Shown here: positions 1,785 through 5,508 of the stretch, piece by piece
How the letters are laid out: the number at the start of each line of letters is the position of its first letter
How positions within the stretch are numbered: position 1 is the first letter of the stretch
Source of the DNA: Escherichia phage ST4
Sequence record: OM982646
Reading direction: 5' to 3' (one strand)
DNA length: 64,000 bases
The notes under the pieces: generated by a model
Told to the model about the DNA's origin: nothing
Database searches by the model: none
The model's input: only the letters and a program-made list of their open reading frames with translations
Translations under genes and position numbers: made by a program

Positions 1785-2089
1785 TATTTCTCCTTAGGAA
1801 TCATGTTTGCCTGGAACTCTGGTTCAGACATCAGACCCAGGTTGCTAAGGGACAGGTAAACAATGTCCTTCAAGTCAACCGAGGTGTCAAAACGCTGGTC
1901 CAGACTAATCTTCAGGGAGTGATTGACACGGGCTAAATCTTTATAAGTCACATAAGGTTCATCAGTGAGTAACATTGTGTTCATGGTAAGCAGGGAACCA
2001 TCATCCACTTTAGGAAGTTGGAAGACTACCTGTGCTGCTACCATCCAATGATATTTTTTGACTACAGTTTCTTTAGTACTTTTGGTCAT
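1784..2089 (-). CDS. hypothetical protein
   Basis: 101-aa ORF, start overlaps upstream stop (coupled); no motif recognised. Confidence 0.4.
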   Translation of the reverse strand: MTKSTKETVVKKYHWMVAAQVVFQLPKVDDGSLLTMNTMLLTDEPYVTYKDLARVNHSLKISLDQRFDTSVDLKDIVYLSLSNLGLMSEPEFQANMIPKEK

Positions 2090-3081
2090 GCGAATGCCTT
2101 TTGAATTATTTGATGAACTTCTTCTGGGGTAGCGTGATTTGGAATTTCAATCTCGTTAGCCCACGTTGGGTAAAACAAGGATAGTTCCCCACCCAAACCA
2201 ACCTCTGGATGAGCAATATCAGGATGGTCTTGCCAGTTAACAGCTTCAACCAAGTGCTTATTCGTGTACTGCAAGGTATCCATGTTGTCACGAATCATGA
2301 AGTACTGAGCATCATGAATGTGAATACTAGGACGTATATCTAATCTGAACTCACTGGCTCTGACTTTACGCATAAACTCTGAACCAGCACGGTTATTCAG
2401 TAGACACCAGCTTTGCCCTAAAGCATTACCGGCAGTTCTACCTTCAGCTTCTGCTTCATATGGAGTCTTACATGTCCCACGTAATACCTGAGCCAGTAAA
2501 GGAGTACGCACTCTCAAACCAAATGCAGCAGTTACATAACCAGTCTTGGCAGCTTCGTCTAGCTTAGCCTGAACCCACATATCACTAACTACGTAGAGGT
2601 CGTGATAACGTTTCTCTGTTGTTTTAGCTTTCTCTTCTGAGAAGCCACAGTTTTTCATCAAGCCCATATACGTGCCACCATAGGTAAGCAAGAAGGTTGG
2701 GGCTTTAGAATCACTACGCAAGTGCTTGTACTTCGTCTGAATAGAATTGATTGACTCAACTGTGTCTACAATGTCTGGCATCTGCTCACCGAAATAAGCA
2801 TACGCACGAAGACTATGACCATCATAACCATCGGTATACACCTTAAGTTTCTGAGGGTCTTTCGTAGTTAAAGCTGAGATACGGTCTTCAAGGCTTGCAA
2901 AGTCCAGTCCACAAAATATCCATCCACCCTCATAGTCAAGGCATTCAGATACTTGTTCCTGCATGTCATATTTACTAGCTAATTGTATTAACTCGTCATA
3001 GTCATCCAGGGTTACTCTATCCTTTATGCTAACTAATTTATTTAATAAGTCCTGCATTACGAAGTACCTTCTCCTGTTCAA
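2086..3081 (-). CDS. DNA polymerase family A, C-terminal fragment (palm motifs A, B, C)
   Basis: Motif A GLDFASLEDR, motif B RSDSKAPTFLLTYGG (R..K..F..YG), motif C HIHDAQ; lacks exonuclease and N-terminal polymerase part, which lie in the upstream ORF. Confidence 0.7.
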   Translation of the reverse strand: MNRRRYFVMQDLLNKLVSIKDRVTLDDYDELIQLASKYDMQEQVSECLDYEGGWIFCGLDFASLEDRISALTTKDPQKLKVYTDGYDGHSLRAYAYFGEQMPDIVDTVESINSIQTKYKHLRSDSKAPTFLLTYGGTYMGLMKNCGFSEEKAKTTEKRYHDLYVVSDMWVQAKLDEAAKTGYVTAAFGLRVRTPLLAQVLRGTCKTPYEAEAEGRTAGNALGQSWCLLNNRAGSEFMRKVRASEFRLDIRPSIHIHDAQYFMIRDNMDTLQYTNKHLVEAVNWQDHPDIAHPEVGLGGELSLFYPTWANEIEIPNHATPEEVHQIIQKAFA

Positions 3082-3694
3082 CCAAGTTATTAGCTAATAC
3101 ATAAGCAATAACTGCATTCGTAACAGTATCTAAATCTTTATCTACCCGGATTTCTATTCTCTTACCCAAATGGGTAATTCTACCTACCCATTTATTTTTT
3201 GACTTACTGTAGCTAACGTAAGGAGTTGTACTCCAAACCCTTTTGTTAGTTTGTTGGGTACTTCTATTTGCCCATCTACAGTTGTCTGGAGAATATCCTT
3301 TATAGGCATCAATCCTGTCGATACTAAGACCTACTGCATAACCAGAAGATAATGCCCAATCTCGGAAAGTTTCATATGAATTTTTCCACTCATCGCAAAC
3401 ATTTATGCCCTTAGCTCCATATTTGTAATAAGTGGAACATTTTTCATTATGGCAGCGGTCAAGAATGCCGTAGTAAACCTTATATAGAAGTTCCTTGGAA
3501 CGCCCATCTTTGTAGTTACCCGGGCGTTCCTTGTGTAAACATCCACAGCTTCTTGTATGACCACTCTTTAATTTTTGAATATTGACTATAGTAGTGTTCC
3601 CACAGTCACAAAGACATTCCCAATGCTTTGCATAGTATTTGTCTTTGTGACTGAACCCTATTATGGTCAATCTATTAAATTTCTTTCCAATCAT
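3038..3694 (-). CDS. HNH homing endonuclease (HNH_3-like with AP2-type DNA-binding region)
   Basis: Cys-rich zinc finger CDCGN..CGC, HNH-type core IDRIDAYKGYSPDNCRWA, C-terminal YVSYSKSKNKWVGRI AP2-like segment; sits exactly between the two polymerase fragments. Confidence 0.65.
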   Translation of the reverse strand: MIGKKFNRLTIIGFSHKDKYYAKHWECLCDCGNTTIVNIQKLKSGHTRSCGCLHKERPGNYKDGRSKELLYKVYYGILDRCHNEKCSTYYKYGAKGINVCDEWKNSYETFRDWALSSGYAVGLSIDRIDAYKGYSPDNCRWANRSTQQTNKRVWSTTPYVSYSKSKNKWVGRITHLGKRIEIRVDKDLDTVTNAVIAYVLANNLVEQEKVLRNAGLIK

Positions 3695-5508
3695 TTAGCA
3701 CCACCTATTGTATCTTTTAGGGACTGGATTAATGTATCCAGCTTATCCCTGTTTGGCAAGTAGCAACTGGGTGGTGCTTCGAAGCATTTCTTAATCTTCT
3801 TGGCATATTTGGAACCACTAGGGATGGTCTGTAGGTTAGGCTCGGACGCTGAGAGACGTCCTGATACCGTGCCCCCAAGATTGAGGTTACCGAACAGGTA
3901 GTGCCATCCATCTGGTCCAGGTTGTGCATTACGGAAAGCTGGTATGAATGAAGTGATAATCTTATCCACAAGCTTATAGTCGATAAGCGCATTGAGCAGT
4001 TCCTTAACATCTTCACTCTGCGTATGTGTACGCAGTGCTTTAATAGTGTCACCGTCAGTAGCAGGTTGCTTGCTCTTAGTAAGACCAAGAACCGGTAAGC
4101 CAATATAGTCAAATAACAGCTTTTGTAGCTGTGGACCGGAGTTAGGATTAAACTCGATGTCACAATCAGCCAATGTTACCTGCTTCTTCTTTAGCTTAGC
4201 ATTCTTATCGTTTACCCATTCCTGACGAAGCATCAGAGTGAAATTCTTCATGAGCTTAGACTCACGAATAGTTTTCAAAGCCTGGTTCCTGTCAGTTTCC
4301 ATCTCTTCAGCTACTTGGTTAACGGTTTCCATATTCATGGGCATACCGGTTAACTGCATCTGAATAATGTCTTCACAGGCTGGTTTAAAGATGTTGTTGT
4401 AAACATCCAGTTGGTCATCAGCAATGAGAGTATCCCAGTGCTTCTCGTAGGTGTACCACGTACACAAACCATCAATGAGGTTGTAGCGTAACAGTTGCTC
4501 ATTAGGAATAAGACGAATGTCTTTAATATCATCCTGAGCATAGTTACCAGCATACTCCTGAGCCTGGTCTTTCAGGCTAAGGTGATTACCGGCACAGCTG
4601 TTAGTAGCCAGGTAGGTGATTAACTTAGTACAGTCCCAATTACGCAGCATGATTTCCATGCCATGCAGTAAGCCTTTCGTATCAATCAGGTTATCCATGA
4701 ATAACTGATAGATAAGTATGTACACGTCATAGCTAATGTTGTGATACATCTGCCGTTGAGTGTACTTAATGAAGAATTCACGTAACAGGTTACGAACAAC
4801 ATCATTCCTGTTGATACGCCCATAAGGAGCTTCAGTAGCCCCCTTAATTGGCTCGTAGTCCACATTAAAGGCTATGCCTTGTGTCTTGCTCCAACAGAAC
4901 GTAATTGTTCCTATACCGGCGTTATAGTGCTTTAAACCAAATGTTTCGATGTCTATAGCCAGAGGCTTATTCATCTCAAGCAATTGGTCTAGCCAGGCTT
5001 TAATCTTTTCGGGTGTATCTGGATAAGCTTCAAACTCAATGATTCCCTGTCCTGGTTCAGCATACTGTCCACGGATGTGGTTAAGTAATGCATCCATACC
5101 CTGAGCAATCTTGGCTTTCACTACTGGTGGGTCATAAAAGACCTGCCTGTAGCTGGGTGTATAGATAACCTTCTGTTTACCCCATACTGAGTCGCAAACA
5201 TAGCCGAGGTTAGCCTCTGCTTTAGCTTCTTTAGTCAGTATTTTAAAGTAGTCAGAATCGGTACAGATAATGTACTGAGTTTCTGCATCATCAAGTACTT
5301 GTTGCAATTCCTGCTGTATGAACTCTTTAATCTCCCTTGCAGGAGTCTTTTTCTTACCTGGGGCAGAATGAAGCTCAAGGAAGATGAAATCTTCCATGCT
5401 TAGGTCATAAGGCAGCAGGTAGGTTTTAATCATCTCCTCCCTTCGGATTTGATGACCGAGGATAGCAATAGGATACTTGCCAGTATCCTGAGAGGTGATG
5501 TAACGCAT
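3691..5508 (-). CDS. DNA polymerase family A, N-terminal fragment (3'-5' exonuclease plus N-terminal polymerase region)
   Basis: Exo I AIDIETFGL, Exo II NISYDVYIL, Exo III YNLIDGLC; Pol I signature TVSGRLSASEPNLQTIP near C-terminus; ORF stops before motif A. Confidence 0.75.
   Translation of the reverse strand: MRYITSQDTGKYPIAILGHQIRREEMIKTYLLPYDLSMEDFIFLELHSAPGKKKTPAREIKEFIQQELQQVLDDAETQYIICTDSDYFKILTKEAKAEANLGYVCDSVWGKQKVIYTPSYRQVFYDPPVVKAKIAQGMDALLNHIRGQYAEPGQGIIEFEAYPDTPEKIKAWLDQLLEMNKPLAIDIETFGLKHYNAGIGTITFCWSKTQGIAFNVDYEPIKGATEAPYGRINRNDVVRNLLREFFIKYTQRQMYHNISYDVYILIYQLFMDNLIDTKGLLHGMEIMLRNWDCTKLITYLATNSCAGNHLSLKDQAQEYAGNYAQDDIKDIRLIPNEQLLRYNLIDGLCTWYTYEKHWDTLIADDQLDVYNNIFKPACEDIIQMQLTGMPMNMETVNQVAEEMETDRNQALKTIRESKLMKNFTLMLRQEWVNDKNAKLKKKQVTLADCDIEFNPNSGPQLQKLLFDYIGLPVLGLTKSKQPATDGDTIKALRTHTQSEDVKELLNALIDYKLVDKIITSFIPAFRNAQPGPDGWHYLFGNLNLGGTVSGRLSASEPNLQTIPSGSKYAKKIKKCFEAPPSCYLPNRDKLDTLIQSLKDTIGGAK

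Follow-up and report, generated by a model that had tools for sequence, protein, structure and literature searches.

Several phage enzymes are known to be made from genes that are cut in two in association with a free-standing homing endonuclease gene. The functional core of the essential enzyme gene nrdA of phage Aeh1 is interrupted by free-standing mobE, and the enzyme is made as two polypeptides (Friedrich et al. 2007, cited in PMC2988022); the C- and N-terminal tails that NrdA owes to the insertion were reported to be needed for activity (Crona et al. 2011, PMC3045599). The PolB gene 43 of Aeromonas phages 25 and 44RR is split into 43A and 43B, and the topoisomerase genes 39 and 60 of phage T4 are split by mobA (PMC2988022). 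A further case is phage 10Gb, a G7C-like phage from a horse, whose g39 carries an insert of ~800 bp with an open reading frame (ORF) for a homing nuclease (Babenko, Golomidova, ... Letarov 2019, 10.1101/542787). According to the parts of that preprint that concern g39, reverse-transcription PCR (RT-PCR) gave no sign of splicing of the insert, whereas the g16 intron of sister phages was spliced in the same experiment; expression of g39 yielded two polypeptides, confirmed by matrix-assisted laser desorption/ionization (MALDI); the authors noted a Shine-Dalgarno sequence (SD) and an ATG for the C fragment; and cloned copies gained mutations that inactivated the nuclease ORF, suggesting toxicity (10.1101/542787). 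Here, we analysed the family-A DNA polymerase locus of Escherichia phage ST4 within a 64,000-nt stretch of its DNA (OM982646; the whole stretch is called the window, and all ST4 positions refer to it). We conclude, with a probability of roughly 0.87, that the polymerase is encoded by two separately translated genes that have been split by a free-standing homing-endonuclease cassette.

ST4 is a G7C-like, N4-like coliphage (Schitoviridae, Gamaleyavirus), and positions 1500..6500 match many such phages at 92-96% identity. The minus strand of 2086..5508 holds three ORFs: an upstream polymerase part, a 218-aa endonuclease and a downstream polymerase part. The features of the locus are as follows.

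3691..5508, minus strand: upstream polymerase gene, 605 aa; 3'-5' exonuclease domain, thumb and part of the fingers up to ...PNLQTIPSGSKYAKKIKKCFEAPP, then a 25-aa cassette-encoded tail and a TGA stop.
2923..3769, minus strand: mobile cassette, 847 nt that stand where the uninterrupted allele has AGGC (4 nt), a net gain of 843 nt; made up of tail codons and a stop, the endonuclease gene, an SD and ATG, and leader codons.
3694..3768, minus strand: C-terminal tail of the upstream fragment, 25 aa, SCYLPNRDKLDTLIQSLKDTIGGAK; predicted amphipathic helix.
3038..3694, minus strand: free-standing homing endonuclease gene, 218 aa (PHROG 374 'HNH endonuclease', E=6.7e-64); N-terminal Cys/His zinc-type region (CxCxCG...GHTxSCGC), PacI-like HNH-type core (IDR...GYSPDNCRW...Q..N) and AP2-like C-terminal region.
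3067..3074, minus strand: SD GGAGAAGG, 9 nt upstream of the downstream polymerase ATG, inside the 3' end of the endonuclease ORF.
2086..3057, minus strand: downstream polymerase gene, 323 aa counted from ATG 3057; its 44-aa cassette-encoded leader precedes GWIFCGLDFASLEDR (motif A), motifs B and C and the C-terminus.
2926..3057, minus strand: N-terminal leader of the downstream fragment, 44 aa, MQDLLNKLVSIKDRVTLDDYDELIQLASKYDMQEQVSECLDYEG; predicted compact three-helix unit.

The two outer ORFs encode a family A DNA polymerase (N4 gp39-like) in which exonuclease motifs I-III, PNLQxIP and motifs A, B and C are all present. An initial annotation of this DNA had described such a polymerase in two ORFs with an endonuclease gene between them, and we recovered these ORFs at the same coordinates, on the minus strand. 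Its placement of the motifs was also correct: DIET, HNISYD and YNLID of the exonuclease, PNLQTIP and ...KKCFEAPPSCY all lie in 3691..5508, and motif A (GLDFASLEDR), motif B (RSDSKAPTFLLTYGG) and motif C (IHIHDAQ) lie in ORF 2086..3081. The upstream ORF matches Pfam DNA_pol_A (PF00476) at profile positions 11-152 (E=2.4e-18) and the downstream ORF at positions 137-303 (E=2.2e-14); PHROG 17 matches both, and both are 95-97% identical to 859-aa phage polymerases. The endonuclease ORF does not lie exactly between the halves, as had been stated, but overlaps the upstream stop by ATGA and the ATG-started downstream ORF by 20 nt. We take the downstream half most likely to start at ATG 3057, in agreement with the annotations of phi G17 and U1G, rather than at TTG 3081.

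To most relatives the interruption is foreign. G7C (gp39), E20 and KKP 3715 have an unbroken 2580-nt polymerase gene, most relatives carry a single uninterrupted 859-aa polymerase, and the 120 homologues that best match the joined protein in the database all have 859 aa. The initial annotation had named separate genes in all relatives as the finding that would speak against it; this is ill suited to the locus, because most relatives have a single gene in place of the two ORFs, which marks the split as a secondary insertion. The comparison with uninterrupted homologs that it had recommended placed the insertion site between the CFEAPP and GWIFCGLD codons. E20 reads ...GCACCACC-AGGC-TGGATATTT... 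where ST4 reads ...GCACCACC-(847 nt)-TGGATATTT..., a single clean difference (sequence of the site in the insert-free E20/G7C allele: ...AAATGCTTCGAAGCACCACCAGGCTGGATATTTTGTGG...). The protein is interrupted after ...KKCFEAPP and ahead of GWIFCGLDFASLEDR (GWIFCGLD...), 7 residues short of the motif-A aspartate, which places the insertion site by sequence in the polymerase catalytic core, between the PNLQTIP motif and motif A. The same cassette boundaries emerge from two comparisons, one with E20/G7C and one with the metagenomic locus L011. The upstream polymerase gene is 92-100% identical at the DNA level to E20, a phage that lacks the homing endonuclease gene, up to position 3770, the downstream core is 93-98% identical to E20 and G7C from 2925 downwards, and sliding windows show ST4 to be E20-like (92-100%) on both sides, up to the junctions.

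Two observations concern the same gene. First, the PNLQTIPSGS codons of ST4 carry two synonymous changes (AAC and TCC, at 3835 and 3811; gene positions 1674 and 1698) that are absent from seven aligned relatives and lie ~40-65 nt upstream of the insertion; chance might account for them, or else avoidance of an endonuclease or intron target. Second, the two-ORF polymerase of phage Bp4 (L004 1087..3663) was considered as a like case and set aside: it has three single-base indels, probable sequencing errors or frameshifts, and no insertion.

The initial annotation had left two options open, namely two polypeptides or exons joined at the RNA level by a self-splicing group I intron that houses the endonuclease ORF. 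The former agrees with the separate translation signals of the halves and with the 10Gb preprint; for the latter we found no intron core. An intron would not be out of place here. Phage polymerase genes are classic intron sites, the g16 intron of the 10Gb sister phages was reported as spliced (10.1101/542787), and a true group I intron with a different HNH ORF lies 57 nt upstream in PhAPEC5 and PhAPEC7:

2002..2671 of the PhAPEC5 locus (L003), equivalent to ~ST4 3826: insert inside the PNLQTIP codons, annotated in GenBank as an intron, with an HNH ORF.

Furthermore, the ST4 insert could be a degenerate or atypical intron, with a single polymerase made from the joined exons, and the Rfam model for group I introns can miss members. 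Yet the covariance-model search that had been proposed returned neither Intron_gpI nor any other Rfam family at E<=10 in 1500..6500 or 2850..3900, three Rfam scans gave no core at this threshold, and there was no gathering-level Rfam match across the whole window. As a positive control, the PhAPEC5 insert matched Intron_gpI (38 bits, E=3.6e-7), and the Rfam search is therefore able to detect such introns.

The anatomy of the insert also speaks against an intron. Three overlapping, protein-constrained ORFs cover every base of it and hence leave no room for a non-coding ribozyme core. Its 5' flank ends in C, not U (...CCACC(C)), and a terminal G is obtained only if the 3' boundary is shifted. 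The encoded peptides are conserved where the endonucleases are only 44-61% identical, whereas an RNA core would give conservation at the RNA level, and RT-PCR showed no splicing of the matching 10Gb insert in the part of the preprint devoted to it (10.1101/542787). A spliced message would be expected to have the ligated junction ...GAAGCACCACC/GG(N)TGGATATTT or ...GCACCACC(N)GG(N)TGGATA, and the joined protein the junction peptide CFEAPPGWIFCGLDFASLEDR. The sequences KKCFEAPPSCY and ECLDYEGGWIFC, which had initially been read as compatible with a splice junction, do not serve as one, since SCY... and ...ECLDYEG are encoded by the cassette and are not polymerase sequence. We regard a spliced intron as improbable.

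Could the halves instead be joined during or after translation? The polymerase ORFs share one frame (843 is a multiple of 3), with >12 in-frame stops between them, and a 50-nt bypass linked to a homing endonuclease exists in T4 gene 60. A translational bypass or readthrough in ST4 would, however, have to span a gap of >800 nt with at least 12 in-frame stops, and the endonuclease lies in a different frame from the polymerase. An intein-like reaction fares no better, and here the initial annotation, which had seen no in-frame intein signature, was right. There is no conserved N-terminal Cys/Ser, no His-Asn before GW and no intein match in Pfam, and the Gly at +1 is unfit as a nucleophile. The tail starts with S-C-Y in ST4 and with A-Y-Y (L012), G-N-T (L015) or A-R-Y in relatives, so that its first residue is Ser in ST4 and Ala or Gly elsewhere and the next Cys is not conserved; leaders end in ...YEG, ...YMP or ...REV before G-W. 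Moreover, the peptides total ~69 aa, too short for an intein. Joining of the halves by any of these routes is thus extremely improbable.

Each part of the split gene has its own signals for translation. The downstream half is preceded by GGAGAAGG-N9-ATG, an SD that is identical in U1G, phi G17 and L011, and the endonuclease ATG is preceded by AGGTGG, with its start coupled to the upstream stop (ATGA). The minus strand of the insert shows no promoter- or terminator-like signals above chance, and therefore the three ORFs are probably on one mRNA. The isolated phages phi G17, U1G and PGN829.1 have the same cassette at 91-95% identity; hence, the split enzyme supports growth. The locus shares the features of described 'genes in pieces': the host gene is contiguous in relatives, the pieces have their own starts, and the mobility of the endonuclease is independent of the host-gene phylogeny.

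A break 7 residues before a catalytic aspartate looks destructive, and one might suppose that the split polymerase is a decaying pseudogene while another polymerase replicates the genome. N4 replication requires its own polymerase. We found strong purifying selection on both halves of the ST4 gene (ratio of non-synonymous to synonymous substitution rates, dN/dS or omega, 0.04-0.12; ~0.04 for the upstream gene), and all motifs are kept. The same layout recurs in a number of phages that were isolated independently and propagate, as well as in lineages that are old and diverged, and no second polymerase gene was seen among the ORFs of 1..9000, the remaining window not having been searched for one. 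A pseudogene is therefore very improbable, and we return to the reading in which two separately translated genes encode a working enzyme.

We then considered the cassette as a unit of inheritance. The ST4 cassette, set in an E20-like backbone, is 95% identical overall to those of U1G and PGN829.1 (86-100% in 120-nt windows), and 80-96% identical to that of phi G17 in windows of the same size. In the metagenomic contig L011, the N fragment of the polymerase shares only 54% protein identity with that of ST4; the endonuclease there is 93% identical, and tail and leader are near-identical. DNA identity to L011 is 83-100% inside the cassette and 43-80% outside, and it changes sharply at ST4 ~3767 and ~2924. 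Judged from these alignments, tail, endonuclease and leader move together as one mobile unit.

A search with the leader returned numerous short fragments of polymerases, with homologous leaders at their N-termini, and a search with the endonuclease returned relatives at 61-64% (L012-L014) and 44-46% identity (L015, L016/L017 and L018/L019). The same CFxAP(P/E)/GW site is used by endonucleases that are 44-64% identical, in five further contigs from four more lineages. Each such contig has an endonuclease of 218-224 aa, flanked on one side by an N fragment ending in CFxAP(P/E) plus tail and on the other by a C fragment in which a leader comes first, followed by GW(I/L)(F/W/L)CG.D. These patterns argue for a cassette family that is specialised for a single site in N4-like polymerases. 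Beyond this family, the flanks of 21 IMG/VR endonuclease relatives (at most 46% identical) held no polymerase motifs, and the closest endonuclease relatives outside Gamaleyavirus in the phage collection are 34-49% identical; the locus in Klebsiella phage RCIP0114, the only one of the latter that was inspected, is not in a polymerase. Neither set of relatives established a sequenced-phage donor of the cassette.

Several neighbouring rearrangements are recorded here in their own right. U1G, PGN829.1 and phi G17 (L005, L006 and L002) have a divergent tract of ~345 nt directly downstream of the cassette (equivalent to ST4 2570..2920). This tract is 66-82% identical to ST4 and 87.6% identical to ECBP1; ST4 itself lacks it and is 82-98% identical to G7C/E20 there. 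The ECBP1-like tract may reflect ordinary mosaicism or an old co-conversion tract. In L011 and L012, both metagenomic N4-like contigs, the polymerase is cut again further downstream, giving three pieces: the second insertions follow ...KLKVY or ...MPDI and contain a 179-aa HNH_3 ORF (L011 6329..6868) or a 68-aa ORF (L012 6427..6749), and the middle fragments, of 116-141 aa, end in a conserved beta-rich tail (...HHIRDD...DGKT.TGEEFY...). Elsewhere, G7C and Bp4 have a homing-endonuclease gene at the ORF 41.1 position. At 1308..1344, ST4 has no HNH ORF 41.1 between gp41 and the gp42-like exonuclease, and those two genes overlap. By gene content, the complement of homing endonucleases clearly varies among G7C-like phages.

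The enzyme encoded in the cassette is under purifying constraint (dN/dS ~0.1). It has further strong PHROG matches to 3377 and 2081, both 'HNH endonuclease', and also matches 8790, 'restriction endonuclease'. Invariant residues in its family are the N-terminal CxCxCG...GHTxSCGC and the core (I/V)DR...Y.P.NCR...Q..N. The best solved relative is the PacI restriction endonuclease (PDB 3ldy), a weak match (E=0.1) over ~40 residues with the common stretch VDRSDSFEGYSPQNARLA, and an AP2 domain is recognised in relatives of the enzyme (e.g., P0269 at E=2.9e-8). The designation as an HNH enzyme in the initial annotation agrees with the PHROG matches; the HNH models of Pfam and NCBIfam gave no match, and an Arg occupies the place of the first His. 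We suggest that it is not a typical HNH enzyme but a PacI-like enzyme of the HNH superfamily in which Arg replaces the first His. Most simply, its putative target would span the insertion site and be disrupted by the insert, the site being assigned there because the ST4 flanks are E20-like up to the junction.

One further feature lies within the endonuclease gene.

3581..3671, minus strand: long imperfect hairpin towards the 5' end of the endonuclease ORF, ~20-110 nt past its ATG.

It has a perfect 13-bp inner stem (CAGTCACAAAGAC/GTCTTTGTGACTG) and surfaced as weak miRNA-like matches. The z-score was -2.3 for the offset sub-window 3555..3645, which takes in the inner stem but not the whole hairpin. 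Structure prediction gives a similar fold for phi G17, U1G, L011 and L012 (in which the endonuclease is 61% identical) and not for L015, L016 or L018. The predicted hairpin might serve to control expression of the endonuclease, or conserved codons might produce it incidentally.

Taken together, these data suggest the following scheme. The cassette has entered the catalytic core of a family-A polymerase gene (the N4 gp39 homologue) and turned it into two genes, whose products must then associate non-covalently into an active enzyme. By its sequence, it carries all that is needed for expression of both halves, supplying 25 codons and a stop to the first, an ATGA-coupled endonuclease gene, and an SD, an ATG and 44 leader codons to the second. 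By analogy with homing endonucleases and from the local anatomy, the endonuclease would cut insert-less polymerase alleles at or near the insertion site; upon co-infection, the break would be repaired from the cassette-bearing genome and the cassette copied in, again as homing endonucleases do. The carrier would be immune, its target being disrupted by the insert. Lastly, the tail helix and the leader may help the halves to rebuild the palm around motif A, for which the tails of the mobE-split NrdA of Aeh1 are the precedent.

To assess this last step, we examined the two peptides. Tail and leader evolve as coding sequence: compared with phi G17, the tail differs by 5 synonymous changes and 1 non-synonymous change, and the leader by 5 synonymous and 4 non-synonymous changes (omega ~0.14). 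Tails across the cassette family share the motif (L/I)xx(L/I)Ix(S/T)(L/I) (LIQSL, LIKSI, IIQTL, IINTL and IINSI), which is kept where the endonuclease is only 44-61% identical. The leaders have the common pattern M.(D/K)(L/F)L..L, followed by two further helical stretches. AlphaFold2 (AF2) predicted helices at leader residues 2-10, 17-28 and 33-38, with a predicted local distance difference test score (pLDDT) of 76-92 over residues 1-40. These predictions fit, and do not prove, a small helical module divided between two chains. By analogy with Aeh1, we suggest with moderate confidence that the tail helix and the three-helix leader aid interaction or folding of the halves, rebuilding the palm around motif A. 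We put forward more tentatively, at somewhat less than even odds, the full proposal of an old cassette family dedicated to one N4-like polymerase site, whose tail and leader dock and splint the cut enzyme as a portable, protein-level alternative to the splicing of introns or inteins.

Tail and leader could instead be neutral by-products that merely provide a stop and a start, with the two polypeptides assembled by the native interface alone. Many proteins tolerate cuts at surface loops, and the tails of Aeh1 NrdA are reported not to be needed for heterodimer formation as such (PMC3045599). The ST4 tail and leader are short, their dN/dS estimates depend on few substitutions, and the AF2 tail helix is of low confidence. 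On the other hand, the peptides have similar lengths in every lineage (tails 17-26 aa and leaders 44-53 aa), with hydrophobic patterns kept down to 44% endonuclease identity, the leader is predicted as a well-folded three-helix unit, and both peptides travel with the cassette into polymerases that are only 54% identical. We therefore consider neutrality of the peptides unlikely, although it deserves to be taken seriously.

The origin of the peptides is a separate matter. With MAFFT, Pfam and NCBIfam alike, the last part of the leader (...SKY...(K/E)C(F/L).Y..) tends to be placed against the stretch of polymerase directly before the cut (...SKYAKKIKKCFEAPP), and the two halves have 12-16 profile columns in common in their Pfam and NCBIfam matches. 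A duplication test with shuffles of single sequences was marginal (p ~0.05-0.07). When we used a hidden Markov model (HMM) of the upstream polymerase segment, the score of L012-type leaders was reached by 0-1 of 400 shuffles and that of the ST4 leader by 95 of 400; hhalign of the leader against the polymerase segment gave P=0.026 over 12 columns. The tails showed no significant similarity to the downstream segment or motif A. A relic duplication at the original insertion is possible on these alignments; we do not claim that tail and leader are decayed duplicates of the adjoining polymerase segments, the signal being suggestive only for the last ~12 residues of the leader.

Some observations weigh against the reading of two assembling polypeptides split by a homing cassette. 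In the endonuclease, an Arg stands where a canonical HNH motif has its first His. AF2 predictions of the separate halves were poor (mean pLDDT 45 for the downstream half and 40 for the upstream half), and the tail helix, at residues 587-602, had low confidence. The conservation of tail and leader could stem in part from overlapping signals or from hitch-hiking with the endonuclease gene. The basis for two assembling polypeptides in ST4 is indirect, consisting of selection, viable isolates, 10Gb and the predicted leader fold. As for 10Gb, the ST4 cassette is very probably the same element as its insert, an identification drawn from position, size and content only.

On our preferred reading of two genes and a cassette, what is annotated in phi G17, U1G, PGN829.1 and ST4 as a pair of 'DNA polymerase I' ORFs and an ORF for a 'hypothetical protein' or 'HNH' would represent one cassette-split polymerase. 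That layout, already present as such ORFs in three GenBank genomes, would be neither an intron-containing gene nor a sequencing artefact, and pipelines for gene content or phylogeny should join the halves and drop tail and leader. ST4 would also offer a natural family-A polymerase that works in two pieces, cut 7 residues before its motif-A catalytic aspartate. If tail and leader reassemble the enzyme, the result for Aeh1 NrdA would become a transferable module, of some interest for split-protein engineering. If the splint proposal is true, a selfish gene can invade the catalytic core of an essential gene, and do so in polymerases that are only ~54% identical. The PhAPEC5-type intron and the ST4-type cassette are two kinds of selfish element within one conserved stretch of ~60 nt. 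Together with the second insertions in L011 and L012, they may be viewed as three mobile elements that compete for a short conserved stretch of the gene.

How does this locus compare with known systems? The kind of arrangement is already known from Aeh1 nrdA/mobE, from gene 43 of T4-like phages, from genes 39/60 and, very probably as this same element, from 10Gb. The ST4 insert resembles that of 10Gb, as far as the preprint describes it, in the phage group and the gene, in its position (G7C coordinate ~25420 there and ~25398 in ST4), in its size (~800 bp there and 843 bp in ST4), in a single internal homing-nuclease ORF and in stops in all frames. It differs in that gp41 of ST4 is not truncated and there is no spacer at the place of ORF 41.1, a poor fit to the features in Table S1 of 10Gb; the tail and leader peptides, the wider family and the transfer between distant polymerases are not analysed in the passages of the preprint that bear on g39.

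PhAPEC5 and PhAPEC7 belong to the same genus and carry, in the same polymerase gene and 57 nt upstream of the ST4 site, an insert with an endonuclease ORF (GenBank KF192075). Their insert, however, has non-coding flanks, an Intron_gpI match, a U before the 5' splice site and a G at the 3' end of the intron, and its HNH endonuclease is unrelated in sequence to that of ST4, whose insert lacks those intron features. The core of the cassette enzyme has in common with PacI the motif (V/I)DRxDxxxGYSPxNxR(W/L)A, to which the enzyme adds N-terminal zinc-type and C-terminal AP2-like regions and a homing context.

Gene 43 and genes 39/60 are likewise replication enzymes of lytic phages in two cistrons near a free-standing endonuclease gene, with fragments that co-purify and are active (PMC2988022). 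Gene 43 differs in encoding a family-B polymerase that is split at another position, and the role of the endonuclease in that split is unclear; for T4 genes 39/60, a 50-nt translational bypass is also involved (PMC2988022). Aeh1 is alike in that an endonuclease has inserted in the core of an essential enzyme and the split polypeptides bear tails from the insertion. As described in the sources cited above, it concerns a ribonucleotide reductase, the mobE endonuclease and one phage, whereas ST4-type tails and leaders are conserved across a diverged family and cross polymerase lineages. What ST4 adds to these systems is modestly new: tail, endonuclease and leader form one conserved, transferable cassette family with one dedicated site in N4-like polymerases, and a leader that looks like a folded helical unit.

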